Below, piece after piece: positions 8,900-23,287 of a DNA stretch of 64,000 nucleotides. The translations under genes were made by a program, and so were the position numbers. Under the pieces are notes generated by a model. That model searched no databases, had not been told where the DNA came from, and saw only the letters and a list, made by a program, of their open reading frames with translations. Source of the stretch: an archaeon (GTDB taxonomy: Archaea > Nanobdellota > Nanobdellia > Woesearchaeales > GW2011-AR9); NCBI GenBank assembly GCA_002688265.1, contig NZCK01000007.1:33685-97684 (forward strand), read 5' to 3'. Position 1 is the stretch's first letter. Each line of letters opens with the position of its first letter.

Positions 8900-8902
8900 G
8901 GA

Positions 8903-8935
8903 TTTTTTGGTTTTACTTTTTTTATTTCATTGTTA
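8903..8935 (+). terminator. T-rich tract downstream of nrdJ (archaeal oligo-T terminator candidate).
   Basis: ggattttttggttttactttttttatttc lies immediately after the TAG stop. Confidence 0.25.
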
Positions 8936-8990
8936 AGATTCTATAAATTGATTCTAAAAAACCGTACGTATTAAATTCCATTTAAAATAC

Positions 8991-9160
8991 TTCAAGAGTA
9001 TGGCGGCACGGCCTGTGGCTTAAACAAACACAATCTCGAGCAAAGCTCTCCAAGCTGACTTTGCTAAAGCAAAGTAAGTTTTCCTGAAAATCCTACAGAA
9101 TTTTCTTTAAAGGTAAAATGTTTCTGTTTAAGGGCCTCGATGGGCGGCCATACTCTTGAA
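8991..9160. ncRNA. Rod-like structured element with a perfect 14-bp terminal inverted repeat. It could be an ncRNA or a miniature inverted-repeat element.
   Basis: ttcaagagtatggc (8991-9004) is the exact reverse complement of gccatactcttgaa (9147-9160). The stem continues as ggcc/ggcc and cttaaac/gtttaag. Internal hairpins are agcaaag...ctttgct and gaaaat...attttc. The island sits in the 330-nt gap between nrdJ and pyrB. Confidence 0.35.
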
Positions 9161-9232
9161 AATGTAGTTAACTTAATACATACAAAAAACCAACATATTT
9201 TTATATTTCATTGATTTATAGATATTTTTGAT

Positions 9233-10360
9233 ATGGAAAAAATATTCTGGGGAGCAACTTCTCAAATAGGAGAATTTCATAAAAACAAATTTCAAGAATT
9301 TTTATCAAAAGGGCCTAATGAATTAAAAAAACTTTGCACAAAAAGTAATGGACGCCTAAGACACATCATCCGAGCAGAACACATGGATAAGGAATTCTTG
9401 AACATTATATATTACACTGCCAATGCAGCTAGAAAAATAAGTAAAATTGATCCAAACTACCTTAAACAAAAATTACAACATGTATCAATACTAAATTATT
9501 TTGCACAACCAAGCAGTAGAACTTTTCTCTCTTTCTCTCGAGCTGAAAGTAAACTTGGTATCCAGCGAGAAGAAGTTAGAGAACTGCAAACATCAAGCAC
9601 AGTTAAAGGTGAATCAGATTTAGATTCAATTAGAACTTTAAGTTCGTATTTTGAAGGGATGGTTATTCGTCACCCCAGCAATCAATTTGATGCATTTGCA
9701 GTATGGGCCTTACACAACTCAGCAAGACCAATTCCCATTATTAACGCTGGGAGTGGGAGCCAAGAACATCCAACTCAAGCATTACTTGATTATTACACTA
9801 TTAAAAGATCACTTAAAAAAATAGATGGCATCTCAGTTGCATTTGTGGGAGATTGTCTGCGAGGAAGAACGGTTCGCTCAGCTGCTAAATTGCTTTGTTT
9901 GTATAATGATGTTACACTATACTTTGTTGCACCAGAACATTTGCAAATTGATGAAGAAACCCAAGAATATTGTAGGTCCAATGGATTAAAAGTACACAAA
10001 ATTTCAACAGAAATTAAAGAAATTATTAAAGAAGTTGATGTATTATACATGACTAGAATTCAAAATGAACACGGAGGCGATGGAAAGTATCCTCTTGAGT
10101 TTAAACTAAATTTAGAAATGCTTGAAGCTATGAAAGAAAATAGTATTATTATGCATCCAATGCCCAAACGTGAAGAGATGGACCCAAGAATTGATTATCT
10201 AAAAAATAATCCAAAGGTAATGATTTGGCGTCAACAAAGAAATGGTATGTGGGTTAGAGTTGCAGTATTGGCTTACATTTATGGCAAAGACTTAGAAATT
10301 AGGAACCATTATGCGAAAATTGAACAAAAAATGGCTAAAATTCTTAGACATAAAGTTTAA
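9233..10360 (+). CDS. pyrB: Aspartate carbamoyltransferase catalytic chain.
   Basis: Block-by-block similarity to the PyrB sequence as recalled from memory, not checked against a database. Blocks are SSRTFLSFS (STRTR region), IRHP, EHPTQALLD, VAFVGDCLRGRTVRS, LYMTRIQNE and HPMPKREEM. HPTQ rather than HPCQ argues for ATCase over OTCase. There is an N-terminal extension of about 40 aa and no pyrI adjacent. Confidence 0.85.
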   Translation: MEKIFWGATSQIGEFHKNKFQEFLSKGPNELKKLCTKSNGRLRHIIRAEHMDKEFLNIIYYTANAARKISKIDPNYLKQKLQHVSILNYFAQPSSRTFLSFSRAESKLGIQREEVRELQTSSTVKGESDLDSIRTLSSYFEGMVIRHPSNQFDAFAVWALHNSARPIPIINAGSGSQEHPTQALLDYYTIKRSLKKIDGISVAFVGDCLRGRTVRSAAKLLCLYNDVTLYFVAPEHLQIDEETQEYCRSNGLKVHKISTEIKEIIKEVDVLYMTRIQNEHGGDGKYPLEFKLNLEMLEAMKENSIIMHPMPKREEMDPRIDYLKNNPKVMIWRQQRNGMWVRVAVLAYIYGKDLEIRNHYAKIEQKMAKILRHKV

Positions 10361-10384
10361 AATAAGCAAAAAAAATCAGTTCTT

Positions 10385-10717
10385 GTGAAATTTAAATTAG
10401 AAACAAAACAATCAAAAGCTATTCGCATATCTTTGCTAGATGATTCAGGGAAAGAAGTAGCTCGAGCGTTCATGTTTCTAATCACTAACGACTTACATGA
10501 AGGGCCATATGCGCTTTTAGAAGATGTATTTGTGAATGAAGAATTTAGGGGTCAAGGCTTAGGAAAACAGATTGTAAAGAAGGCTGTTGAAGAAGCCAAA
10601 AGTCTTGGGTGTTATAAAATAATTGGAACTAGCAGAAACTTAAGGGAAAAAGTTCACGAGTTCTATCGATTATTGGGTTTTGAAGAATACGGTAAAGAAT
10701 TTCGAATGAATCTATAA
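10385..10717 (+). CDS. GNAT-family N-acetyltransferase.
   Basis: Acetyl-CoA binding motif A is FRGQGLGKQIVKKAVEEAKSLG. 110 aa. Confidence 0.65.
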   Translation: MKFKLETKQSKAIRISLLDDSGKEVARAFMFLITNDLHEGPYALLEDVFVNEEFRGQGLGKQIVKKAVEEAKSLGCYKIIGTSRNLREKVHEFYRLLGFEEYGKEFRMNL

Positions 10718-10767
10718 GAAGTTACCAAAATACTTATAAACAGATTATTAGATTCTTGTGATTATAC

Positions 10768-10877
10768 GGGACTGTAGCTCAGCGGGAGAGCGCCAGACTG
10801 AAGATGCTCAAAAATCAGTGGTTTTTGGCCAATCATCTGACATCTGGATGTCAAGGGTTCAAATCCCTTCAGTCCCA
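10768..10877 (+). tRNA. tRNA-Phe (GAA) with an intron of about 38 nt at the canonical 37/38 position. No encoded CCA.
   Basis: Acceptor gggactg/cagtccc plus discriminator A. D-arm gctc...gagc. Anticodon stem ccaga/tctgg with loop cuGAAga. The stem is interrupted by tgctcaaaaatcagtggtttttggccaatcatctgaca. T-arm aaggg-ttcaaat-ccctt. Confidence 0.8.
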
Positions 10878-10950
10878 CTTTCTTTCCAATAATTTAAGTA
10901 CTCAAATAACTTCTTTAATTACCCCAGATTATAATTAAATAAAAGAGGAA

Positions 10951-11409
10951 TTGATAAAAATGGCAAATGAATTTATGGGAAGTTTACTCTTTGGATTAAT
11001 TGCATTAGTTGGGTTGTTAGCAATTGCATTATATGTCTATGGATCACTAGCACTAATGACTATTGCAAAACGAACTAAAACTGAAAACGCATGGCTAGCT
11101 TGGATTCCAATTGCAAACATCTACTTGATGATGAGAATTGGAAAACTGCCAACTTGGTCACTGGCACTTTGGGCACTAATTTTTGTTCCAATGCTTGGAG
11201 GACTTACTGCAGCCGGAATGAATGTGTGGTACTGGTGGATGATTGCAGAAAGACGAGGTAAAGAAGGATGGTGGGGCATCTTAATGTTAGTTCCAATTCT
11301 GAATTTGGTTTTACTAGGAATTTTAGCTTGGGGAGAAGATGAGAAGAAGCCCGCAGCAAAGAAGAAAAAGAAGGTAGCTAAGAAAAAGGTTACAACGCGC
11401 AAGAGATGA
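10951..11409 (+). CDS. Small membrane protein with a Lys-rich C-terminal tail.
   Basis: Three to four TM helices, then PAAKKKKKVAKKKVTTRKR. Confidence 0.5.
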   Translation: MIKMANEFMGSLLFGLIALVGLLAIALYVYGSLALMTIAKRTKTENAWLAWIPIANIYLMMRIGKLPTWSLALWALIFVPMLGGLTAAGMNVWYWWMIAERRGKEGWWGILMLVPILNLVLLGILAWGEDEKKPAAKKKKKVAKKKVTTRKR

Positions 11410-11458
11410 TTTGTTTTTTGTTTTTATTTATTTCATCTTGTTTTTTATTCAAGTTTCT

Positions 11459-13699
11459 TTATCCTAGCGTATTCTGCAACACAACACCAGCAAATAAATT
11501 GAACAGAATAATTACAACACCTGCAATCATACAATACAAACCAACACTCCTGGTTAAAGCCTTCCCAAGCGCATAACGTTCTCCTTGCTTATCAACACCA
11601 TTCTCAATACCATTAGCAAGCACAGTTAGAATATAAGCTAACTGAACTATGTAAATTCCCACAATCACCTGAAAATGAAATGTAGGAATACCAATTCCAA
11701 AAATAGTCACAAGGCCTCCAAAACCAGTACTCTCTCCACTACTTGAAAATTGAGATAACTGAGAACTTAATTTGGTTAGTACAGTTGAAATCATAGAAGT
11801 GATTCCAACCACAATTCCGGCAATCGCAGGAGTTAAAAACGCAACTTGTGCTTTCATACTTCCAATTACTTCTGCCATCAAATCTTTTAGTCGCTCTTCA
11901 ACTCGATGAATCTCTTTCATGTACCTGCTCATTGACAGAAGAGCTTGGGCAGCAATCAAAGGCCCACGTTTAATACTCTCAACTAAAACTTTCATAGAAG
12001 ACTCAATCACTTTTGAAGGATAAGAAACAACTGCTCCTACTTTGGGATCAAATAAAGATTCCTCCAAACCCATCCCTAACTTTAGAATATTTTTTTCAGC
12101 AAGGTTAAAAAATTCGCCAGAAGTTGAACCGCGCATTGTTTCAGCAACTTTAGCAAACGCAATCTCAGCCGGCAGACCATCACCTAATCTGTTCCCTAAT
12201 TGAAATAAGGCACTAGAAAATTCTTCTTCCAATTTCTTGGTGCGGTTACGGATCGCTATCACATTCTTGCTTCTTAATGAATAGAACAATCCTATCGACA
12301 ACCCAAAAGCTAAGATTACAACTAAAGAGAGTAGAGAAGCCCCCAAACCATAAGGACCCACCAAATCAGTGTCTTCACAACTTGCAAACTCAGGTGGACA
12401 AATATAACCCATCATAGAAATAGATTGATCCTCATTGGCAATTTCAAACCCTGGATCCACTGCGTGCAAGAGTATTGGACTCATACCAATAATAAACAAA
12501 AAAGCGAATAGAGTGATCGCGAAATAAAGGGGGTTAACTGCAAACTGAAAGTTTTTCCCTAAAGGAATAATTACGTTTTCATATCTCTTCAAACCAGGAT
12601 GACTTTTTACAGGGTCAGCTCCACCATAACCACTAGGCCTTTTTGAGAGAATTGTTTTTCCCAGATAAAATACTCCTACTGGCAATGTGATGTTATATAG
12701 CAAAGAAATGTAAATTGCCATAGTTAAAGTAGAAGTATCGCTGCTACTCATGAAACTTACAACTAATGGCAAAATTACCAAACCCAAAATTGGTAGGATA
12801 ATACCAAGCATATTCAGCATGGTCATTGGAGCCTTAAGATTATGCGCGTATCTTAGCATACCTTCGTATGTTCCGTCGAGGATCACATCCAAAGATTTGT
12901 CCAGAAGAGCAACTCTTCGATCATCACTTGGTTCTAATAAAGAAGATTCAATTAAATGAAAAGCTTCCACAAAATCACTATTCCACTCTTTCCAAGTTTC
13001 AAGGTAAGTGTCTGCAGAATCTTTGATTGATGAGAACTTTCCATTCTCTAAATCCCAAAGCATTTTTCGAAAATCAAGAGAAAGTGGAGCATCTAAATGT
13101 TCAGCTGCAAAAGCAATTGCCCTTTCTAGGTTAGAAGTATGGCGCATATAAGTTACTAAATAAAAAACACTTTGCACCATTTGATTACTTGCCTGAATCC
13201 TCCATTGATCAGCAAAAAATTGAGGTATCTTTTGGAAGGCAAAAATCATGGCCATCCCAAAAAAGATACAAAAGAAAACTAGAAACATCATATTAAAAAT
13301 TGCAAACGCGATTAAAGAACCAAATACAATAAACAGCATTGGCACCATGAATGATAGAGCTATTACTCCACTTGGGGTGCAGTTAAGATGACATGTTTCA
13401 ATTTGTTTAGTTAAGGTGGCAGCTTGTTTAGCATCAACCTTAAGTTTGAAAATAGATTCTGCTTTGTTACAAGCCTTTTCATAGAATGTAAAATGAGCAG
13501 GATAAATCTCTGACTTAAACTCTGAGTATTCACGGCTACCAACTGGAGTTGCTCCGGCACCGTCAGCTGAGACGCCAACATCTCCAAATTCAGCTTTGAT
13601 CCGCTCTTTATATTTAACTAAAATATCACCATACTCTTCCTCCCCGGAATCATCCTGAACTGGCGCTAACTCATTAGGATCATTTGTTTCATCCACCAC
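11459..13699 (-). CDS. Type IV pilus / archaellum membrane platform protein (TadC/ArlJ/FlaJ-like, two T2SSF-type domains).
   Basis: 746-aa polytopic protein. Two TM clusters are each followed by an alpha-helical cytoplasmic domain of about 130 aa. The arrangement is typical of GspF/TadC-like platform proteins. Apparent GTG start. Confidence 0.55.
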   Translation of the reverse strand: MVDETNDPNELAPVQDDSGEEEYGDILVKYKERIKAEFGDVGVSADGAGATPVGSREYSEFKSEIYPAHFTFYEKACNKAESIFKLKVDAKQAATLTKQIETCHLNCTPSGVIALSFMVPMLFIVFGSLIAFAIFNMMFLVFFCIFFGMAMIFAFQKIPQFFADQWRIQASNQMVQSVFYLVTYMRHTSNLERAIAFAAEHLDAPLSLDFRKMLWDLENGKFSSIKDSADTYLETWKEWNSDFVEAFHLIESSLLEPSDDRRVALLDKSLDVILDGTYEGMLRYAHNLKAPMTMLNMLGIILPILGLVILPLVVSFMSSSDTSTLTMAIYISLLYNITLPVGVFYLGKTILSKRPSGYGGADPVKSHPGLKRYENVIIPLGKNFQFAVNPLYFAITLFAFLFIIGMSPILLHAVDPGFEIANEDQSISMMGYICPPEFASCEDTDLVGPYGLGASLLSLVVILAFGLSIGLFYSLRSKNVIAIRNRTKKLEEEFSSALFQLGNRLGDGLPAEIAFAKVAETMRGSTSGEFFNLAEKNILKLGMGLEESLFDPKVGAVVSYPSKVIESSMKVLVESIKRGPLIAAQALLSMSRYMKEIHRVEERLKDLMAEVIGSMKAQVAFLTPAIAGIVVGITSMISTVLTKLSSQLSQFSSSGESTGFGGLVTIFGIGIPTFHFQVIVGIYIVQLAYILTVLANGIENGVDKQGERYALGKALTRSVGLYCMIAGVVIILFNLFAGVVLQNTLG

Positions 13700-13809: not shown

Positions 13810-16569
13810 ATGAGGTGGAGTAAGTTTTCTTTAGTAGTATTAATTAGTTCTCTCTTAACTCCAATCTTTGCTTATGCTTCAGTTTCTAGCATTATCTCTA
13901 ATGTATTTGATACTATAATTAGTATAGGCTCGCTATCCTTCTTAGGTTTTCCAGGAGGAGACGATATTACTTCATTCTTAAGAATACTAATATTCATTCT
14001 AACATTTACTATCTATTTTACAGTTCTGACTGCTGCAAATGGATTCTTAAAAATATTTCAAAGAAACATTGCAATTGTAATTGCACTCATCTTATCAATA
14101 ATTACAACAATCTTTATTCCATCAACAGTGATGATAGCTTCAGGTACTGCTCTTGGAACATTAGTTTCAGTAGCATTACTGGCAGCCCCACTTCTTGGAA
14201 TATTGGCTTTGATCTTTTTCTTACCTGATCGTCCATGCTGGTGGTGGTTAGTTAAGTTATTTATTGCAGTTATTCTTTATTGGGTTTCAACACAAACACA
14301 AAATTACTTGGCTGATCCTGCATTTTCTTTCTCTACAAATGTGGCTGCAAGTTTAGCAGGCTTTTGGGAATGGATACTGTTTATTGAATTCTTAATTATA
14401 TTGTATTTGATCTATAAGTTACTCACTTGTGGAGATGATGAAACCGGAATTCCACTAAATCCAAAAGAATTGTTAGATAGAATTAAAAGAATAATTAATC
14501 CGAACGCGCCTGATCCTGGACGAGATGATCCCGATGGTGAGGAAGACCATTCTCCACCACCACCTCCTAATCCAGGAGCTAAGCCACCTAATTCAAATGA
14601 AGGAGATAATCCTATCCCTCCAGATAATCCTAAACTTAATGAACCAAAACATAAACCTATCCCTGGCACGCCTTTCTATAAACCAAAAAAACCAAAACCT
14701 CCTAAAGAAAAAAGAATTAAGATTGATTTATCTCCTTGGTTTCTTTCGGTTAGAAATCAAGATGGGCTTGGGGCTTGTGCTGCCTTTGCAGGTTCATCAA
14801 TTATGGAATACATCATTAATAGAATCTCTGGTTATCTTAATTACGATTACAAATTATCTGAATTATTTCTTTGGTACAACGCAAGAGAAGATAAGAACAG
14901 CAACTCTGGAACATGGCCTGTAGATTTAATGAATGAACTTCTAAAACAAGGTGATTGTAAAGAAAAATTATGGTCATTTGAAGGTGTAACTTCAACTAAG
15001 TATTTACAAATGCCCTTACAAAATTGTTTCCAAGATGCTTTGCAACAAAGAGCACTATCTGTTAAAAATGTTTCAACAGACCCAGACGAATGGATAAGAA
15101 TTCTTCTTGATGAACATCCATTATATTTTGGAATAGGAGTTCCACAAAATTTTGGCAAAGCTTATCTCACTGGAAAACCATTATATGAAAAAATAATATG
15201 GCCAACCAAAGGTGGGCATGGAATGGTAATTGTAGGATACGATTCACATTATCCTACACCTGATGGAAGAAAAATAGAAGCATTTAAAGTTAGAAATAGT
15301 TGGGGAGAACTCTTTGGAGAAGGAGGATACATTTGGATTCCAAGAATTTTATTACGAAATATGATTAACAAACAAGGGGATACACTTTACATCATTGACG
15401 GATGGAATAACAAAAAAGGAGACAAACAACTTTACACAATCAAAGGACGAGCAGTGTTTGATGATAAAAGATTCAAAGGATTTCCAGCAGTACCAAAACA
15501 ATGGACAGGACATCAAATTGTAAAGAGTAGCAAAATTAGTGCACCAAACGATCACGCATTCAAAGTTGCAGTAATGGCACAAATTCAAGGAAGGCCTGTG
15601 TTTTTGCCTGAAGCCGAAACTGTTGTACAAACAGGACAAAACGGAATGTTTAAACTTCAATTTACAGCTGATCCAACTCAATTTCAAAAACTAACACAGT
15701 TTCCTGAAGCATTTCCTCAACTCAAAGGAGTTGATTTTTCTAAACAAGCACCAGGATTAATTGTTGTTAAGAAACCTTACATGGAAGAAAACAGTGATAT
15801 GCACCAATGGTTCTTCCATGTTGCACAATTCAAATATTCTCACGCAGGACGGGGAGGAGAAGGGCACCACGAACCAACAAATCCTAGAAGCGATATTGCT
15901 AGTAAAACAAAAATACACTTTTCAGGTCGGCCAATTCAATTTGGACCTAACCATGATACTGAAGAGAATGTAGTAATTCCAGTAATGTTCTATGAAGAGA
16001 ATAAAACTGAGAACGAAGAAGATGAAGAGAAGAAAAAACATAAAGCAAAACTAGCTCTTGAGAGAATCCATAAACATGCCAAGAAAGAGTTGGATTGGAC
16101 GATGAGAGAATCAGACTTGTTAGTTGGTTTAGAACCTTCTTTACTAGCACAAGATATAAAAGCGTTTAGGCGGTTAGATAGCAGAATAAATCAAGCTTCA
16201 AGAAGAATTTATCGCGAATTTGTTACACTTAAGAAAACAATTAGTCATGAGACAAAGTCTCTTCCTTCAGGATTAAATAAAAAATTAAGTGGCAAACTAG
16301 AACAGTTAAGTGTAGCTGAGAAGAATTTTATTTTATTCTTACAATCATCAGATCCTATTCAAACTTCAGAAAACCCCAAACAACTGTCTGTTGAAGCTGC
16401 TAAAAAATATCTACAAAAACACCATAATGACGAAAGCAAAAAACAAGAGGTTGAACAAGCATGGATTGATTTAAGTTTTAGTTTTAAAGATTTGAAGAAA
16501 TGGCTAGCAGCAATGGTAACAACACTTGAAGATGTTGTTGAGTTGAGTGGCGAAAAGAAAGCAAAATAA
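13810..16569 (+). CDS. Membrane-anchored papain-like (C1 family) cysteine peptidase with a Pro-rich linker and a long C-terminal coiled-coil region.
   Basis: N-terminal multi-TM domain, then linker PPPPPNPGAKPPNS...KPKKPKPPKEK. Peptidase core has QDGLGACAAFAG (Cys), GGHGMVIVGYD (His) and VRNSWGELFGEGGYIWIP (Asn/Trp). 919 aa. Confidence 0.65.
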   Translation: MRWSKFSLVVLISSLLTPIFAYASVSSIISNVFDTIISIGSLSFLGFPGGDDITSFLRILIFILTFTIYFTVLTAANGFLKIFQRNIAIVIALILSIITTIFIPSTVMIASGTALGTLVSVALLAAPLLGILALIFFLPDRPCWWWLVKLFIAVILYWVSTQTQNYLADPAFSFSTNVAASLAGFWEWILFIEFLIILYLIYKLLTCGDDETGIPLNPKELLDRIKRIINPNAPDPGRDDPDGEEDHSPPPPPNPGAKPPNSNEGDNPIPPDNPKLNEPKHKPIPGTPFYKPKKPKPPKEKRIKIDLSPWFLSVRNQDGLGACAAFAGSSIMEYIINRISGYLNYDYKLSELFLWYNAREDKNSNSGTWPVDLMNELLKQGDCKEKLWSFEGVTSTKYLQMPLQNCFQDALQQRALSVKNVSTDPDEWIRILLDEHPLYFGIGVPQNFGKAYLTGKPLYEKIIWPTKGGHGMVIVGYDSHYPTPDGRKIEAFKVRNSWGELFGEGGYIWIPRILLRNMINKQGDTLYIIDGWNNKKGDKQLYTIKGRAVFDDKRFKGFPAVPKQWTGHQIVKSSKISAPNDHAFKVAVMAQIQGRPVFLPEAETVVQTGQNGMFKLQFTADPTQFQKLTQFPEAFPQLKGVDFSKQAPGLIVVKKPYMEENSDMHQWFFHVAQFKYSHAGRGGEGHHEPTNPRSDIASKTKIHFSGRPIQFGPNHDTEENVVIPVMFYEENKTENEEDEEKKKHKAKLALERIHKHAKKELDWTMRESDLLVGLEPSLLAQDIKAFRRLDSRINQASRRIYREFVTLKKTISHETKSLPSGLNKKLSGKLEQLSVAEKNFILFLQSSDPIQTSENPKQLSVEAAKKYLQKHHNDESKKQEVEQAWIDLSFSFKDLKKWLAAMVTTLEDVVELSGEKKAK

Positions 16570-16607: not shown

Positions 16608-18932
16608 TTAAGAATCTATTCTATGCTGCCGTTCTGCTTTTCTCTTAATCACTTCATTATCTAACCAACGTTTGTATTCAAAGAATATCCTATCAGGATC
16701 TAAATGTCCACGATCTTCTAACACCTTGCCACTTAAAATATGAAACTTATCATTAGCTCTAATCACAAACTCAGCTTCAAACATATCATGATCATTGGCT
16801 GCCACTGCAGCATCTACCAAAGCTTGCTTACACTTCCCCCTTAGAACTATATTATTCCAAACAGCATCCCAGTCTCCAGCAAACTCTTTAATTGAACCTG
16901 CCATCCTCTTTAGAATTTCAGAATTACCATTGATCAAATCGTCAGTGATTTCAAGTTCGTCAGTTTTAGGATTGTAAACCATCAAATCGACAAAAGCACC
17001 TTCCTTAAGTGGATCCTCTTCCCACTGCTTTCTAATCTCAGTCACTCTTAGAACACGCTTGAGTTTCTTCATCCCACTAGCACTCCTCACTGGATTAACA
17101 TTGATAATTATATCAGTTGCCTTAAATGAAGTTCTTGGAACCCCAATATCATTAACAACACGATCGTAAACACCATAAGGGCTGGCTGCGTGAATTGTTC
17201 CAGCTACAACGTTTGCTGCAGCACCAACTCTCATTGCTTCGAAAAGAGCTATTGCTTCTTTACTACGTACTTCCCCTACAATTAATGCACTGTCCCCTAA
17301 TCTTAAGGTTGATCTGATTCCAGTTGACGCATCAACCTCACTACCTTTCTCAACTGATAATGAAGAACCAACTTTCAAAGTTTCAATATTGTATCCAAGC
17401 GCTCTTAATGACTCATTAGGAATTTCTAATGTGTCTTCTAGTGTAATAATTCGATACCTGCGCATCATTTCTACTAGCACGCTTCCAAGATAAGAAGACT
17501 TACCACTACTTCTGGTCCCTGCGATAAGAATTGTCGCGTTACCATCGATAATAAAACTTAATAATCCTGCGCATGTGGCATTCATCATCTTAAATTTTGG
17601 ACTCATATACAAAGGAAATGTCCAAGGATGATCTCTGTGCCTTCGAAATGAAAAACCAATCCCAAACGGATCTAATGGTGCAGTAACTGCACTAACACGA
17701 GAGCTAAAACCCTCTACTTTCAATTCAGTATCTAAAATGGGGTTTGCTTCATCTAGTGGCCTTCCACTAATTAGCCTTAATTTTGTTGCCCAAGAATCAA
17801 CCTCTTGCGTTGTTGGATAAACATTAGTGTAACAATCACCATAGTCTTGATGCACAATAAAAATTGGTACCTCTCCATTTGGTGAATTAATATTTACATC
17901 TTGAATTTTTGGATCAGAAAGAAAGAGTTCAATAAGACCAAAACCAACTGTGTATCTTAAAAGAGCTTTGGCCAAAGCATCGATTCTACTCTCTTTCATC
18001 TTTAACTTTTTGTGTTGACTCAAATCTAACAACATATCTTTACCAATATTGAAAAACACTTCTCGCATTCTCTGCGGATCTACAAACTCCTTTTGAGTAG
18101 GTTTGTGCTCTGAAAGAATTCGTTTGGCTGCATCCAAAAGTTCGTATTCACTCTCTGAAAAAGTCATCTCTGGCGGTGTTATATGATACAAATATTTTAT
18201 AGAGTCATCAAAACCAAAAACATTGACTTCAACCTTATCGTCCCCTTCTCCAAAAGAATAACTTTCAAGTAGATTTCCTCCGACAGGAAATTCACTTTGT
18301 AATTTAGTATACATAAAATCTGGCCGTGTACTTGGATGCAAAACATAACCATAGATTTGCCGATCACCATGCTGATAATCTTTAAGATGAGGAAACAAAT
18401 TCCTAAGAATTGTTAACTGTTCTAATTTAGCTAAGGCATCAAGTAAAATGTGCACAAATTTTGTTTGACTCGCTTTATGTTCTTCACCCACTACGTTAGA
18501 TAGTTTGATCTTTTCTTGTCGCTCTAAACGTTTTAACTCTACATACGCTGCAACTGGGTCTTCTTTAAGCCGTTTTGAGAGGATTGCTTGAAACTGAGCA
18601 AAGGCAGATCGAATATATTTCTCATGCACAGGGTCAACAACAATATGTGAGTAGAGAAATCTTTCTTCTTTGCTGAATTTGCGGTAAAGTTGGGCTAATT
18701 CACTTAGTAGTTTTACTTGTGATAAATCATAATCATATTCGCGTTTTTGCGAAAGGATAATATTAGTAATTCCAGAATTTTGTAGCAACATATCAATAAC
18801 TTTACCCATACATTGCTCGCTGTACTCAATTGAAGGAGGGAACATACACTTTTCTAGGTAAATCTTTAAAATTTTATTTTCGCCTTCGTGGTAAATATCA
18901 AAAGCGAAACATTCTTTGGTGCTAGTATCCAT
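16608..18932 (-). CDS. Type IV pilus / archaellum assembly ATPase (FlaI/ArlI-TadA/VirB11 superfamily).
   Basis: Walker A AGTRSSGKSS followed by a TLEDTLEI-type Asp box. His-box-like GTIHA. Long N-terminal domain, 774 aa. Confidence 0.75.
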   Translation of the reverse strand: MDTSTKECFAFDIYHEGENKILKIYLEKCMFPPSIEYSEQCMGKVIDMLLQNSGITNIILSQKREYDYDLSQVKLLSELAQLYRKFSKEERFLYSHIVVDPVHEKYIRSAFAQFQAILSKRLKEDPVAAYVELKRLERQEKIKLSNVVGEEHKASQTKFVHILLDALAKLEQLTILRNLFPHLKDYQHGDRQIYGYVLHPSTRPDFMYTKLQSEFPVGGNLLESYSFGEGDDKVEVNVFGFDDSIKYLYHITPPEMTFSESEYELLDAAKRILSEHKPTQKEFVDPQRMREVFFNIGKDMLLDLSQHKKLKMKESRIDALAKALLRYTVGFGLIELFLSDPKIQDVNINSPNGEVPIFIVHQDYGDCYTNVYPTTQEVDSWATKLRLISGRPLDEANPILDTELKVEGFSSRVSAVTAPLDPFGIGFSFRRHRDHPWTFPLYMSPKFKMMNATCAGLLSFIIDGNATILIAGTRSSGKSSYLGSVLVEMMRRYRIITLEDTLEIPNESLRALGYNIETLKVGSSLSVEKGSEVDASTGIRSTLRLGDSALIVGEVRSKEAIALFEAMRVGAAANVVAGTIHAASPYGVYDRVVNDIGVPRTSFKATDIIINVNPVRSASGMKKLKRVLRVTEIRKQWEEDPLKEGAFVDLMVYNPKTDELEITDDLINGNSEILKRMAGSIKEFAGDWDAVWNNIVLRGKCKQALVDAAVAANDHDMFEAEFVIRANDKFHILSGKVLEDRGHLDPDRIFFEYKRWLDNEVIKRKAERQHRIDS

Positions 18933-19045: not shown

Positions 19046-19489
19046 ATGGATTTTGGAAAGAAACCAGCAGCGCCGGCCCCTAAACAAGAATTTGATAGCG
19101 CAAAAATGTTTACATGGGCTAAAGCATTAGAATCAAAACTGAATGGACTTAGGCGAGAATTTGATCTAGTTAAAAACAATTCTACAAGATCAGGGCAAGA
19201 CACTAAACAAAATATTCAAAATATTAATAGTGAGTTAACTGAATTGCAGCATAAAGTTAGCAAGATGGATGAAAAACTAGATTTAATTGTAGCAGAATTG
19301 AAAAGGACAGCTGGAAGCGAGGAACTAGATGTTTTGAAGAAATACATTGAGTTTTGGAACCCAATGGAATTTGTAACACAAAAAGATATTGACAGGATTG
19401 TAGAACAGAAAATGCAAGATTTTAAACATAACTCTGACAGTCCCGATAAACAAGAACAAGCACAAGATATAAAAAATACAGAAGATTAG
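19046..19489 (+). CDS. Coiled-coil protein.
   Basis: 147 aa with heptad-like K/E/L periodicity. No enzymatic motif. Confidence 0.45.
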   Translation: MDFGKKPAAPAPKQEFDSAKMFTWAKALESKLNGLRREFDLVKNNSTRSGQDTKQNIQNINSELTELQHKVSKMDEKLDLIVAELKRTAGSEELDVLKKYIEFWNPMEFVTQKDIDRIVEQKMQDFKHNSDSPDKQEQAQDIKNTED

Positions 19490-19525: not shown

Positions 19526-20185
19526 ATGGCATTATTCCCAGGACAAACAGGAGCAGGAGGACATTTAGATGTGGACGCTGAAGTACACACACTTCGTTCT
19601 CAAGGACTAACAGATGATCAAATTCTCTCAGAATTAACAGCTAAAGGAGCTAAAGAACAACAAGTGATTTCTAGTTTAAGTAAATTAGGAGCGCCTGGTG
19701 CCCCAGGGATGGGTGCTGGTGGACCACCTGCTATGCCAGGAATGCCACCAAGTCCTCCAGGACAAGGTATGGGCCCTGGAATTAGTATGCCTCCTCCAAG
19801 TTCTCCTCCTACAAGCCATGGTGCTGGACCCACTGATTCTCCACAAGACCTATACGATAGAATCGAAGAAATAACTGAAGAAATGATCGATGAAAAATGG
19901 GACGATTTGATTAAAGAAGTTCGTAAAATTGTGGAATGGAAAAACTCAGTAGAATCCAAAATGCAAAAGATGGATTCTGATCTCTCTAAACTAAAAGATG
20001 ATTTTAAAATTCTGCACCAAGGTGTTATTGGTAAAGTTGAAGAATACGATAAACGAATGCAAGAAGTTGGCACTGAACTCAAAGCAGTTGGTAAAGTATT
20101 CAAAGACGTAGTTCCAGTGTTTACAGAGAATGTGAAAGAACTTCGAAGTATTACGTCCGGTATGCGAGAAGGAAAGAAAGAGTAA
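19526..20185 (+). CDS. Pro/Gly-rich low-complexity plus coiled-coil protein.
   Basis: GAPGAPGMGAGGPPAMPGMPPSPPGQGMGPG, followed by an acidic coiled coil. Confidence 0.45.
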   Translation: MALFPGQTGAGGHLDVDAEVHTLRSQGLTDDQILSELTAKGAKEQQVISSLSKLGAPGAPGMGAGGPPAMPGMPPSPPGQGMGPGISMPPPSSPPTSHGAGPTDSPQDLYDRIEEITEEMIDEKWDDLIKEVRKIVEWKNSVESKMQKMDSDLSKLKDDFKILHQGVIGKVEEYDKRMQEVGTELKAVGKVFKDVVPVFTENVKELRSITSGMREGKKE

Positions 20186-20244: not shown

Positions 20245-20655
20245 TTAAACTAACAAATTACGAGCATCAATCCACTTATTATCAACCCTAGCCCATAACT
20301 TACTAATTGAGAGAGGGTCAAACCCCACATATTTTATTCCAAGGCCATTTAAAGCCCTAGTATCAAAAATTTTACACTCAAACTCAAAAACTTTAACTGG
20401 ATGCATCTTCTGAAGTAAATCTATTATTTTTCCAAGCACCTCACCTTCTCCAATATTCTTTTCAGCATCAAATACACCTATTGATTTTACTATTGATCTG
20501 CCAGCAGGACCTTTAAACCGAAATGAAATTGTACCAACAGAAGTATTTTTCTTGCACTTTGAAGGAACTAAATAATTGTCGCCCTTGTAGCTTATTAAAT
20601 TAGGTGGAATCAATTGAAGTAAATCAAAATTGTCCCACAAAAATTGTATGATCAA
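20245..20655 (-). CDS. Hypothetical protein. It has only a TTG start and is in frame with 20683..20955.
   Basis: No ATG before Met at residue 100-plus. The frame is open all the way up to the TGA of the upstream ORF. Confidence 0.3.
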   Translation of the reverse strand: MIIQFLWDNFDLLQLIPPNLISYKGDNYLVPSKCKKNTSVGTISFRFKGPAGRSIVKSIGVFDAEKNIGEGEVLGKIIDLLQKMHPVKVFEFECKIFDTRALNGLGIKYVGFDPLSISKLWARVDNKWIDARNLLV

Positions 20656-20682
20656 CTGACCATTTGTTTCAGCATCTAAATC

Positions 20683-20955
20683 TCACTCTTTTGGATTCAA
20701 ATCAGCTCTAACTCTCACAAGCATTGGATATCCTTTCATCTTATTTTCTCGTTTTATGAACCTTAAATGCTCTATTGCTTGTTTTCTTGTAGTCCACATA
20801 TAAAACCCAGTACCCTGCCCATGTCCTAAAGCCCTGCTTGGATTAATTCCCTCTTTAACAAAAATTTTTAGATTCTCATTATTTTCTCCTGTACAAGTTG
20901 CATGATACAAAGAGTAAGGATGCTTTGGAATAAATTGAAATGCCATTGAAATCAT
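20683..20955 (-). CDS. Hypothetical protein. It may be the N-terminal part of a gene continuing in-frame into 20245..20655 across a TGA.
   Basis: 90-aa ORF ending in TGA at 20683-20685. The next ORF is in the same frame 27 nt downstream. Confidence 0.35.
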   Translation of the reverse strand: MISMAFQFIPKHPYSLYHATCTGENNENLKIFVKEGINPSRALGHGQGTGFYMWTTRKQAIEHLRFIKRENKMKGYPMLVRVRADLNPKE

Positions 20956-21045: not shown

Positions 21046-21429
21046 CTAAATACCTTGCCTCATCTTCACATACCACCACTGCCACACACAAAAGAAACCA
21101 GCAAAAATAATAGCAAACAACCATAAACTCTTAGGTCCGCCTTCTAAAGCGCCCCACACTAAACCTAAAGTTGCAGCAGCACTCCACAAAAGCTTGAGCC
21201 GAAGCATCACCATAAATGAATCGTAAGAACCTCTATTCATCCAAAGAGACATTCCACCAATTGCAAATAAAGCAGCAGCCACTAACCTTGCAAGATTCAC
21301 TTCTACAGTCTCAAAGCCAAAAAAACCAAGAAAAGAAACTGGAGCAAAAAATAATGGAAAAGCAAAAATCATATCAATTACAAAATGTAATTTAAACCAA
21401 TTGCGAACCTGAACAGGAGTATGTTTCAT
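21046..21429 (-). CDS. Small four-TM membrane protein.
   Basis: 127 aa. Hydrophobic helices with Trp-rich ends. Confidence 0.45.
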   Translation of the reverse strand: MKHTPVQVRNWFKLHFVIDMIFAFPLFFAPVSFLGFFGFETVEVNLARLVAAALFAIGGMSLWMNRGSYDSFMVMLRLKLLWSAAATLGLVWGALEGGPKSLWLFAIIFAGFFCVWQWWYVKMRQGI

Positions 21430-21440
21430 CTTCTAACACC

Positions 21441-21992
21441 TCAAGTCTTTCCCGTTAACAACGCAATTGCCATCACACAAATTGCAAACAGAACTAACAT
21501 CCCCAAAATCTTAGGATGAAAAATTGTCTCATAAATGTTACTCGCAAAATCACCACTATCAGCCGAACCTGTTCCATCAACACCTGCTGCTTGAGATTGA
21601 TCTACTAAACCTTGACCAAAAGTTGCGGCAAATCCAGCAAAAATTATCACAATTGCAATACCAAGCATTGTCCAAGTTACAGCAGCATCTTTAGTTACTA
21701 CGCTTAGAATTTGAGCATCAGTAGTTCCAAAGGTCTTCATCACAAGCAAGAACAATAATACCAGAATGAAAGTTAAAATAAACCAGGGGGATACAAAAAC
21801 TATCATAGCAATAGCAGATTCAGAAAGAGACGCCATGATGGCAGCACATATAGCAATGGTGGCATTAATTGAAATTGATTCACTAACAAATTTGGTTTTT
21901 TGAAGTATAGCGTAAACTAAAACAAATATTAGTAAAACAGGAAATATAACTCCAAAGTACTGCAATAATCCCAAATCCAACACACTTGCCAT
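21441..21992 (-). CDS. Paralogous membrane protein, copy 3 of a tandem triplet.
   Basis: N-terminus MASVLDLGLLQYFGVIFPVLLIFVLVYAIL aligns with the N-termini of 22073..22642 and 22736..23287 (LPFLLVFTxVxA block). About 185 aa with several TM helices. Confidence 0.55.
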   Translation of the reverse strand: MASVLDLGLLQYFGVIFPVLLIFVLVYAILQKTKFVSESISINATIAICAAIMASLSESAIAMIVFVSPWFILTFILVLLFLLVMKTFGTTDAQILSVVTKDAAVTWTMLGIAIVIIFAGFAATFGQGLVDQSQAAGVDGTGSADSGDFASNIYETIFHPKILGMLVLFAICVMAIALLTGKT

Positions 21993-22072
21993 CTTTTTAC
22001 CTGTTTAATCGCTTTCTAAATTATTTGAAATTAAATATTTAAAATAAAAAATATAAATGAAAAAAAGTGATT

Positions 22073-22642
22073 TCACCACTTCTTCTCAAACATCTTTCCA
22101 AAAGATTTCATGAAATTTTCTCCCTTAGATTTGTCTTTATCTGGATCACGGACAATGAACCACACTATTAATCCAAAGACTAAAATTATTATTAACAATT
22201 CCGTGACTTCACTACTCCACCAACCAAAAATATCATAAGGTCCAGTCCAGAGTCCTAAGGAGGCTCCGAATACATAAGCTACAAAACCAATAGAAACTAT
22301 TGCAATTAATGGAGCTGCAGCTTTGGCAAAATCTGTTCCAAATATACCCATCAATAAAAGTAACATAATTGCAGCAACAGAAATTAGAGAAATACTAGGT
22401 AAGGCGTTATTCATTACATCAACAGGGTCATATCCTAAAGGATAATTTCCAGTAATATGTGGTACCACAAACAGTAAGGCCAGAGTTAAAGCAATTACAA
22501 CTGAAAAATTCTTATTATCTTTAAACAGTGGCATTTTTGTTGCCACAGCATAGACAATTGTAAACACCAACAAGAATGGTAATAGAAAATCAACTACCCC
22601 CAAGTTTTGAAATAATTGTGCTAAATTTGAAAATGTTGCCAT
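22073..22642 (-). CDS. Paralogous membrane protein, copy 2 of a tandem triplet.
   Basis: MATFSNLAQLFQNLGVVDFLLPFLLVFTIVYAV. Same length class as its neighbours. Confidence 0.55.
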   Translation of the reverse strand: MATFSNLAQLFQNLGVVDFLLPFLLVFTIVYAVATKMPLFKDNKNFSVVIALTLALLFVVPHITGNYPLGYDPVDVMNNALPSISLISVAAIMLLLLMGIFGTDFAKAAAPLIAIVSIGFVAYVFGASLGLWTGPYDIFGWWSSEVTELLIIILVFGLIVWFIVRDPDKDKSKGENFMKSFGKMFEKKW

Positions 22643-22735
22643 AACTCTTATTCACCTCTTTTATCTAACCTATTAAAGTATCTTTATTACCTTTTTAATT
22701 GTTTTCATAAAATATCTAGTTTTATATTCATTATC

Positions 22736-23287
22736 TTAATCTTTATCCTTCTTTTTTGTTTTTGGTTCTCTAATAATTAAGCCAACCATCCCAGCTACTA
22801 ATAGTAAAAATACTAAGCTACTTACCCACTCAACATCCATCATATAAAGTAAACCAATTAAGGTTTCTAACCAACCCATTGCGTTGAGGAAAATTGCTGC
22901 GATACCAATAAACATGATTGTCATCATCATCTTAATCCAACCTGGAAAATCTTTAAGGGTAAATTCTCCTTCACCATGAAAACTACCCACTAATAACATA
23001 AAACAAACCGAAAGAATCAATAAAAGTACAACATTTGCTACTATCTCATTGATTACCCCAACCAATTGGGTTGAAGCGATAACTAAAAATGCACAAATAA
23101 AAGCAGTCATTGCATTAAGATTCTTTTTAGTAACTTTTTCACCTTCTAATTCACCAATCCCAAGAAGTTTTGTTTTTTCAAGGATAGCAAAGACTAAAGT
23201 AAAAACCAGTAAAAAAGGTAGAACTACATCATAAAGACCAATGTCGTTAAGAAATGTGATTGCATTCCTAAAAATAGTTTCAGCCAT
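22736..23287 (-). CDS. Paralogous membrane protein, copy 1 of a tandem triplet.
   Basis: MAETIFRNAITFLNDIGLYDVVLPFLLVFTLVFAIL. Basic C-terminus. Confidence 0.55.
   Translation of the reverse strand: MAETIFRNAITFLNDIGLYDVVLPFLLVFTLVFAILEKTKLLGIGELEGEKVTKKNLNAMTAFICAFLVIASTQLVGVINEIVANVVLLLILSVCFMLLVGSFHGEGEFTLKDFPGWIKMMMTIMFIGIAAIFLNAMGWLETLIGLLYMMDVEWVSSLVFLLLVAGMVGLIIREPKTKKKDKD

Follow-up and report, generated by a model that had tools for sequence, protein, structure and literature searches.

The subject of this report is a set of three consecutive genes, referred to as A, B, and C, in a 64,000-nucleotide (64-kb) stretch of DNA from an archaeon of the Woesearchaeales lineage (GenBank assembly GCA_002688265.1, contig NZCK01000007.1, positions 33,685 to 97,684). 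This whole stretch is called the window. The three genes encode paralogous membrane proteins belonging to a large, unannotated, lineage-restricted polytopic family, and this family resides within a conserved seven-gene secretion ATPase module that also includes a GspE/FlaI-type ATPase, a platform-like protein, and two coiled-coil proteins designated cc219 and cc147. The module probably encodes a machine of the type IV filament (TFF) type with previously undescribed accessory subunits. The coordinates of the triplet are as follows, where aa stands for amino acids, TM for transmembrane, HMM for hidden Markov model, and ORF for open reading frame.

22736-23287, minus strand: paralog A, 183 aa, ∼5 TM helices; from the ORF list; famA HMM match with E=1e-81
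22073-22642, minus strand: paralog B, 189 aa, 5 TM helices; from the ORF list; famB HMM match with E=1.7e-95
21441-21992, minus strand: paralog C, 183 aa, ∼5 TM helices; from the ORF list; famC HMM match with E=8.7e-66

The paralogous triplet

An earlier note on this DNA had described three minus-strand genes coding for proteins of 183, 189, and 183 aa. The ORFs are in place, and their paralogy is well beyond chance by both BLASTP and profile-profile comparison. A Shine-Dalgarno-like element, GGTG or GAGGTG, precedes the ATG of each gene. TATA-like TTTAAATA boxes lie upstream of A and of C, and an oligo-T tract follows B.

With BLASTP, A and B align over their full lengths with E=1e-10, and the N-terminal regions give E-values of 9e-7 for A versus C and 5e-5 for B versus C. 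Profile-profile alignment of the ortholog groups with hhalign returned a probability of 99.6% over 164 columns for A and B, and probabilities of 98.5% for A and C and 97.8% for B and C, each over ∼85 columns corresponding to TM1-TM3. Judging from these alignments, A and B are homologous throughout, and C is homologous to both in its N-terminal half only. Searching the window with the family HMMs revealed exactly three members. The N-terminal consensus that had been proposed for all three proteins fits A and B; in C, the sequence FPVLLIF takes the place of LPFLLVF, and the aspartate is missing. The protein encoded at 21046-21429, which had been counted as a fourth, divergent member, has to be removed from the set. 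Its hhalign probability against the family is 0.3%, and its homologs are found only in the two nearest relatives, L006 and L007.

Topology and conserved features

The earlier note had called for a prediction of topology. Kyte-Doolittle hydropathy windows and an AlphaFold2 (AF2) model of B agree on approximately five TM helices per paralog, and the distribution of charges provides the orientation. The model of B is all-helical with a mean predicted local distance difference test (pLDDT) score of 76.6, rising to a peak of ∼90 over TM1-TM2. Its helices of TM length extend from residues 16-36, 44-64, 73-101, 103-128, and 144-164, and there is, in addition, a short N-terminal helix that is amphipathic and uncharged. 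Basic residues sit after TM1 (KTK, KKNxN) and throughout the C-terminus. Indeed, the C-terminal cytoplasmic tails of A and B are rich in lysine, and B has a basic amphipathic C-terminal helix. By the positive-inside rule, the placement of these residues predicts that the N-terminus is outside and the C-terminus inside, an orientation opposite to that of a prepilin.

The segment conserved across all three paralogs is TM1. Over 45 diverse family members its signature is G-x-x-D-(V/F)-x-L-P-F-L-L-V-F-T-x-x-F-A-x-L-x-K-T, in which the proline and one leucine are invariant. In A the signature reads GxYDvvLPFLLVFTxxFAILEKT, and the motif that follows TM1 is KKNxN. The most conserved paralog is B, one extracytoplasmic loop of which is nearly invariant (P-H-x-x-G-x-Y-P-x-G-Y-D-P-V-x-V-x-N-x-x-L-P-S); another outer loop is rich in tryptophan. 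The least constrained paralog is C, where a long loop rich in glycine, aspartate, and serine precedes the last TM helix and the basic tail is lacking.

Size and distribution of the family

A word-index search with B gave 492 homologs, 64-93% identical and all annotated as "hypothetical." A profile search with the three paralogs recovered 3,659 proteins, and an exhaustive HMMER scan of 1.84 billion representatives of 50%-identity clusters returned 2,518 sequences at E<=1e-3 and 1,094 at E<=1e-10. The best 150 of the HMMER-listed representatives are nearly all 170-215 aa in length. The source names are Woesearchaeota, Nanoarchaeota, Nanoarchaeia, or "archaeon," the exception being one "Hydrothermarchaeota" label. 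Paralog A itself is 100% identical to P0121, "hypothetical protein CL619_00980 [archaeon]," and is present in the Tara data as well. Note that dozens of metagenome-assembled genome (MAG) records titled "uncultured Methanosarcinales archaeon" (L006, L008, L009, and others) also carry the module, with B proteins that are 56-87% identical to that of the window. The organism label on these bulk submissions looks generic or wrong.

One entry in the public protein collections is spurious. P0168, a protein of 365 aa with the appearance of an A-B fusion, is an artifact: its contig (L168) is frameshifted in a manner that breaks the C-terminus of B and splits C. The apparent linker holds B's own GGAGGT Shine-Dalgarno element and ATG, and such a fusion would clash with the predicted topologies of A and B.

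Attempts at assignment

The A/B/C family matches no known family, as had been claimed. Searches of Pfam and NCBIfam with A, B, C, and the 21046-21429 protein gave nothing above threshold, nor did any Pfam family rise above threshold for the 45 diverse members. A profile search of the PDB with the A/B/C family yielded no match. Foldseek had been suggested as a check on AlphaFold models; run with the model of B, it gave E-values all greater than 1 against the PDB and none below 0.6 against PDB plus BFVD. Clear homology to a transporter, which the earlier note had set against its own proposal, was not found, given that no transporter family was matched at threshold and no transporter fold was retrieved by Foldseek. 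A search of the literature for the family produced nothing.

Matches of a recurrent kind were observed with DUF2070 (PF09843), a predicted archaeal membrane protein. They are sub-threshold and involve 11 of the 45 diverse members, the best having E=6e-6 and 25.3 bits against a gathering cut-off of 30. The B protein of the window scores 17.1 bits against the same cut-off, and none of the 45 members reaches the 30 bits that define membership. The alignments are always collinear, with protein residues ∼4-180 falling on profile positions ∼25-188 of 561. On the basis of these alignments, the family may be remotely related to the N-terminal membrane domain of DUF2070. The DUF2070 proteins, however, are approximately three times longer, and A- and C-type members rarely match. 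DUF2070 has no known function, and a literature search gave nothing relevant.

Several other identities were considered and rejected. As type IV pilins or archaellins, the three proteins fail with respect to both signal and architecture. Their leaders, MATFSNLAQLFQNLG, MAETIFRNAITFLNDIG, and MASVLDLGLLQYFG, have no basic residue at position -2, the basic residues being located after TM1, and the proteins display five hydrophobic segments rather than one TM helix at the N-terminus with a soluble domain on the extracytoplasmic side. The earlier remark that A, B, and C have no class III (prepilin) signal agrees with both a FlaFind-like scan and inspection of the N-termini. A prepilin peptidase (Peptidase_A24, PibD/FlaK; PF01478) can be discounted on the basis of the lack of Pfam or NCBIfam matches, the presence of just one near-invariant aspartate (Asp 18 in B), the lack of a conserved GxGD motif, and the lack of a fold match. 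The proteins do not represent a platform protein (T2SSF, PF00482) or a fragment or relative thereof, for there is no Pfam match and the hhalign probability against the local platform alignment is 0.3%. Finally, as stators of the MotA/ExbB/TolQ type they find no Pfam or NCBIfam match among the 45 members and no MotA or ExbB among the Foldseek matches. The conserved module contains no MotB- or ExbD-like partner.

The conserved gene neighborhood

The remaining members of the module are encoded in the window at the following positions.

16608-18932, minus strand: GspE/FlaI/TadA-type secretion ATPase, 774 aa; PF00437, E=7e-14
11459-13699, minus strand: platform-like polytopic protein, 746 aa; TM helices after each of its two cytoplasmic helical domains (AF2 and Foldseek)
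19526-20185, plus strand: cc219, cytoplasmic, convergent with A-B-C (ortholog alignment)
19046-19489, plus strand: cc147, small cytoplasmic coiled-coil protein, divergent from the ATPase

The ATPase lies 2.5 kb from C, in keeping with the distance of ∼2.5 kb given previously. Conservation of this arrangement was assessed from both directions. The first set of loci was anchored on B and consisted of 80 species-representative genome loci (B identity 51-87%) plus contigs carrying B orthologs; all ORFs of 85 loci were subjected to clustering. Loci are referred to as eligible when enough flanking sequence is available to show the neighbor in question. Orthologs of A were present in 77 of the 80 loci, and the median identity to orthologs is 55% for A and 43% for C.

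The recurrent order is A-B-C on one strand, cc219 and cc147 on the opposite strand, and then the T2SSE ATPase (∼765 aa) on the first strand, often followed by a polytopic protein of ∼730 aa. The unbiased clustering placed 239 genes, always co-directional, in the A/B/C family, which occurs in all 85 loci; 70 loci have cc219, 58 have cc147, and 57 have the ATPase. Two genes upstream of the triplet occurred in 67 and 60 of the 85 loci, and every other cluster in 14 or fewer. Downstream of the triplet, cc219 was found in 60 of 62 eligible loci, cc147 in 56 of 60, and the ATPase in 40 of 46. The two coiled-coil genes, which do not figure in the earlier note, thus show the tightest linkage to the triplet. 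Within the triplet the median gaps are 50 bp between A and B and 13 bp between B and C. Copy number varies for the B type only: locus L087 has the order A, B, B, B, C (9941-13196), and L064 and L082 have two B genes each.

The same block is found in L086, L087, and the contig encoding P0243, where the identity of the A proteins drops to ∼33-35% and the remaining neighbors are all different (Translin, helicases, and a PRC-barrel gene). Both cc219 and cc147 are present in the distant lineages L086 and L087, and orthologs of the ATPase in distant lineages score ∼1,000 bits.

The reverse test was a metagenome scan anchored on the ATPase, which provided 80 loci with 55-65% identity to a divergent ATPase. 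Of 57 loci, 53 have the platform gene no more than 10 kb away, 39 have it immediately next to the ATPase, and 43 have cc147; A-B-C was located upstream in 28 of 42 eligible loci. Taken together, the two sets of counts establish a hierarchy of linkage in which the ATPase-platform pair ranks above the coiled-coil pair, which in turn ranks above the triplet; the linkage is strong but not absolute. The association with a FlaI/TadA-type ATPase, first noticed as local proximity, is evolutionarily conserved in both the B-anchored and the ATPase-anchored loci.

The ATPase, the platform-like protein, and the coiled-coil proteins

The ATPase is a genuine TFF-type component, and the platform-like protein is probably one as well. 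Against PF00437 the ATPase scores 51.7 bits with a gathering cut-off of 24.9, which places it within T2SSE. Its best matches in the PDB are the archaeal afGspE (2oap, 2.5e-29), FlaI (4ii7, 3.8e-15), and CpaF (9e-15). It carries ∼210 extra residues at the N-terminus and ∼115 at the C-terminus. It is not the archaellum FlaI equivalog, its score against the NCBIfam FlaI model being 123 bits versus a cut-off of 550.

For the 746-aa protein, previously described as a TadC-like platform, no Pfam (T2SSF, PF00482, included), NCBIfam, or PDB sequence match was obtained, even with a profile. The fold tells more. In the AF2 model (pLDDT 71), the cytoplasmic domain matches those of EpsF (2vmb, 3c1q), GspF, and OutF (5nbg) with a Foldseek probability of 1.00, TMt values of 0.71-0.75, and a root-mean-square deviation of ∼3 Å. 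The probability for PilC in the type IVa pilus machine model 3jc8 is 0.82. The designation as a platform protein is thus supported at the level of the predicted domain fold, which is of the GspF type, and not by Pfam. Two orthologs carry the name "Flp pilus assembly protein TadB" in the JGI annotation. Note that residues ∼376-450 of the platform-like protein form a β-rich extracytoplasmic insert with two invariant cysteines, Cys 434 and Cys 441. The classical GspF and PilC proteins are not known to have a cysteine-bearing β-rich insert of this kind.

The architecture of cc219 consists of a small conserved N-terminal helical domain, a linker rich in proline and glycine, and, at the C-terminus, a coiled coil in which many residues are invariant. 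The N-terminal motif, V-x-Q-L-R-Q-Q-G-L-T-D-D-x-I-x-x-E-L...G-Y-x-x-Q-Q-I, resembles by eye a UBA-like three-helix domain; no Pfam family matches this domain. An ArlX Pfam match in two of 20 cc219 orthologs was weak and was not used. Searches of the PDB and Pfam with cc219 and cc147 gave generic coiled-coil matches only.

The search for pilins

A FlaFind-like scan of all ORFs in the window revealed no prepilin-type ORF, only internal starts of larger genes, and no pilin genes were located beside the ATPase in the loci inspected. Single-TM proteins upstream of the ATPase-platform pairs in L096 and L105 were examined as candidate pilins and rejected, the genes in question encoding lipoprotein-like proteins and an M50-type protease. 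Indeed, a membrane metalloprotease of ∼190-208 aa recurs beside ATPase-platform pairs (L001, 18542-19168; L096, 8306-8869; L103, 9119-9682; L105, 9078-9644). The copy in L001 is a Peptidase_M50 (E=6.5e-9), and those in L096, L103, and L105 carry the HELAHKF motif. Makarova et al. 2016 (PMC4858521) likewise failed to find the pilins that belong to nanoarchaeal ATPases. MAGs of Woesearchaeota have, however, been reported to carry and express flaB, flaH, flaI, flaJ, and flaK elsewhere in the genome (PMC11606122).

Comparison with known machines

The archaeal TFF "system 2" (clade 2, for example PilB/PilC of Haloferax) also has an ATPase with extended N- and C-terminal regions, a platform encoded by a single gene, and accessory membrane proteins, and a few nanoarchaea fall inside the system 2 ATPase clade (Makarova et al. 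2016). In contrast, the window locus is without pilin or adhesin genes. The two treatments of system 2 (Makarova et al. 2016; bioRxiv 10.64898/2026.04.22.720090) do not describe three five-TM paralogs with two coiled-coil proteins. The closest published frame contains neither the A/B/C triplet nor any mention of Woesearchaeota.

With the archaellum the likeness is one of concept, in that an ATPase of the FlaI type and a platform of the FlaJ type need an extra scaffold (ArlX or ArlC/D/E) and a stator (ArlF/ArlG), and the cytoplasmic coiled-coil partners of the window recall ArlX. The module lacks ArlH, ArlF, and ArlG, however, and ArlF, ArlG, and ArlX are bitopic whereas A, B, and C have five TM helices.

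In the bindosome of Sulfolobus, three small accessory proteins, BasA, BasB, and BasC, are encoded together with a TFF ATPase (BasE) and platform (BasF), and no conventional pilus is made. Each of the three resembles a pilin, having a class III signal peptide and a single TM helix. In contrast, A, B, and C have five TM helices and no class III signal. The window ATPase matches the NCBIfam BasE model weakly (E=1.8e-10, 40 bits versus a cut-off of 1000).

Lastly, in the bacterial type IV pilus and type II secretion systems (PilM/N/O, GspL/M), and in the Tad system with TadB/TadC, membrane-embedded accessory proteins couple the ATPase and platform to the envelope, and the predicted fold of the cytoplasmic domain in the platform-like protein of the window matches that of GspF. 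The bacterial accessory proteins are bitopic, however, and A, B, and C bear no sequence or fold similarity to them.

A model for A, B, and C

The explanation that we favor, with roughly even confidence, is that A, B, and C form a hetero-oligomeric membrane accessory complex (an anchor, scaffold, or stator) of a lineage-specific TFF-like machine in DPANN archaea of the Woesearchaeota type. From genomic context we infer their physical association, their stoichiometry, and a stator or scaffold role. A constant A-B(n)-C arrangement, short gaps, and the presence of one copy per subtype, with B alone multiplied, fit the subunits of one complex, and a TM1 common to all three paralogs is as expected of a shared packing or interface helix. 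Given the fixed gene order, the copy pattern, the conserved TM1, and the conserved linkage, the simplest interpretation has A, B, and C acting jointly, as subunits of one complex, with the ATPase, the platform, and the coiled-coil proteins.

In such a machine, the core would consist of a hexameric ATPase of the GspE/FlaI type and a platform protein like GspF/PilC/TadC, with the ATPase docking onto the cytoplasmic domains of the platform. The cc147 and cc219 proteins would build a scaffold in the cytoplasm, much as ArlX or ArlCDE does in the archaellum. The A, B, and C subunits may surround or flank the platform in the membrane, where the basic cytoplasmic tails of A and B could tether the coiled-coil scaffold and the invariant outer loop of B could contact the cell envelope or the base of a filament. 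The triplet would then serve as the membrane anchor or stator needed to turn ATP hydrolysis into work.

A number of observations weigh against this model. All of the evidence for it comes from genomic context, and the confidence of the AF2 model of B is only moderate. The proposal made earlier, that the triplet encodes accessory or stator-like components of a pilus or archaellum, thus gains from the conserved linkage to the ATPase but finds no precedent in sequence or structure: searches of Pfam, NCBIfam, and the PDB, together with Foldseek and hhalign, revealed no similarity of A, B, or C to known TFF accessory proteins, and the known accessory and stator proteins (PilMNO, GspLM, ArlF/G/X) are bitopic or soluble rather than five-TM. 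In 14 of the 42 ATPase-anchored loci there is no triplet within 10 kb, and several hold only the ATPase and platform. Conversely, L027, L038, and L071 have triplets without a nearby ATPase. Triplet and coiled-coil genes are convergently transcribed, and the triplet lies outside of the ATPase operon. Finally, no pilin genes were seen in the window or next to the ATPase in the inspected loci, so that the machine may be something other than a filament system.

Alternative explanations

Some of the same observations would suit an autonomous membrane complex: a channel for ions or solutes, for instance, or a permease, or a factor in membrane homeostasis. Its genes would lie near the ATPase through co-regulation or slow rearrangement, with no coupling to it, physical or functional. 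We regard this as possible, if doubtful. Five TM helices with a conserved aspartate at the outer end of TM1 and lysine and threonine at its inner end are compatible with a pore, and the triplet, having its own TATA-like boxes and Shine-Dalgarno sites, is not co-transcribed with the ATPase. The incomplete linkage in the reverse test, and the exceptions among the B-anchored loci, point in the same direction, as do weak and scattered Pfam matches to various transporter-like TM families. None of these matches reaches threshold or recurs consistently, however, and the Foldseek search shows no transporter fold. More importantly, the linkage holds to ∼33% identity while other neighbors turn over, and inertia is hard to invoke at such a distance.

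An unlikely variant of the favored model goes further and takes the seven-gene module (A, B, C, cc219, cc147, the ATPase, and the platform) as a pilin-less TFF derivative of Woesearchaeota-type DPANN archaea. In that variant, A, B, and C would be a new membrane core, conduit, or rotor/stator ring powered by the ATPase.

The genes upstream of A raise the idea that the triplet belongs to a cell-division or envelope apparatus, serving, for example, as anchors or organizers for an FtsZ-SepF divisome or an S-layer-like surface protein, with the ATPase module as a mere neighbor. Divergently upstream of A lie SepF (PF04472, E=5e-11) in 60 of the 85 loci and a surface protein of ∼477 aa (signal peptide, DUF11/CARDB-like Ig domains, and a TM helix) in 67 of 85. 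In L086, A is preceded at a distance of 31 bp by a same-strand gene (9146-9424) for a 92-aa PRC-barrel protein (PF05239, 25.6 bits versus a cut-off of 21.2), and PRC-barrel proteins are partners of SepF in haloarchaeal division. Yet the SepF and surface-protein genes are absent from the whole window and from its nearest relatives, and a second clade has a Translin-like gene rather than SepF upstream. The A-B-C, coiled-coil, and ATPase portion is retained in all clades, indicating that adjacency to division genes is clade-specific, and a division role for the triplet is accordingly quite unlikely. In most Woesearchaeales loci the SepF and surface-protein pair is located ∼2.2-2.8 kb upstream of B (in L004, for example, at 7193-7660 and 7840-9276).

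It is very improbable that the ATPase-platform machine uses A, B, and C as non-canonical substrates or filament subunits, with their N-terminal helix standing in for pilin α1-N. In favor of this idea, the helix is, as in major and minor pilins, the most conserved segment of otherwise diverging paralogs, a near-invariant glycine precedes it with an acidic residue three positions later, and pilin genes were found neither in the window nor next to the ATPase in the inspected loci, just as Makarova et al. 2016 found none to match nanoarchaeal ATPases. Against it, a basic leader and a [KR][GA] cleavage motif are both missing (Leu, Ile, or Phe occupies position -2), the positive charges after TM1 predict an orientation opposite to that of pilins, a protein with four more strongly hydrophobic TM helices could hardly be extracted from the membrane, and Woesearchaeota are reported to express flaB-type genes elsewhere (PMC11606122).

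Other genes near the triplet

One further feature was delineated next to C.

21046-21429, minus strand: protein "D," 127 aa, TM-rich; no Pfam or NCBIfam match; lineage-specific and outside the conserved module

Between D and cc219, at 20245-20955, there are two minus-strand ORFs (136 and 90 aa) with no Pfam match and no homolog in related loci; they may represent a lineage-specific insertion or a split gene. Between the ATPase and platform genes, on the opposite strand (13810-16569), lies a gene for a 919-aa protein with five N-terminal TM helices and a papain-like C1 peptidase domain, which is conserved only in L006. Divergent from A, the segment 23829-25256 encodes a 475-aa protein with no Pfam match and no signal peptide, the homologs of which are found only in the nearest relative, L006. 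This protein occupies the site held elsewhere by the unrelated ∼477-aa surface protein.

Implications

Archaea of the Woesearchaeota and related groups are abundant but uncultured. Their genomes are small, and they presumably rely on other cells, to which they would have to attach or with which they would exchange material. Recognizable pilins have been noted as missing from their secretion ATPase loci. The module described here is among the best-conserved membrane systems of these organisms, with identities across the sampled loci of ∼68% for the ATPase, ∼64% for the platform, and ∼64% for B, and yet five of its seven proteins are without an assigned family. For annotation pipelines, more than 3,600 "hypothetical" proteins become one family. 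Viewed as one constant group accompanying an ATPase and a platform, the triplet and the coiled-coil pair offer a concrete target for further study. If the complex is indeed a new stator or conduit, it would widen the known architecture of the type IV filament superfamily. Should the module prove to be a pilin-less derivative, it may serve contact or exchange between symbiont and host in place of a conventional pilus, and A, B, and C would found a new class of TFF-associated polytopic subunits.

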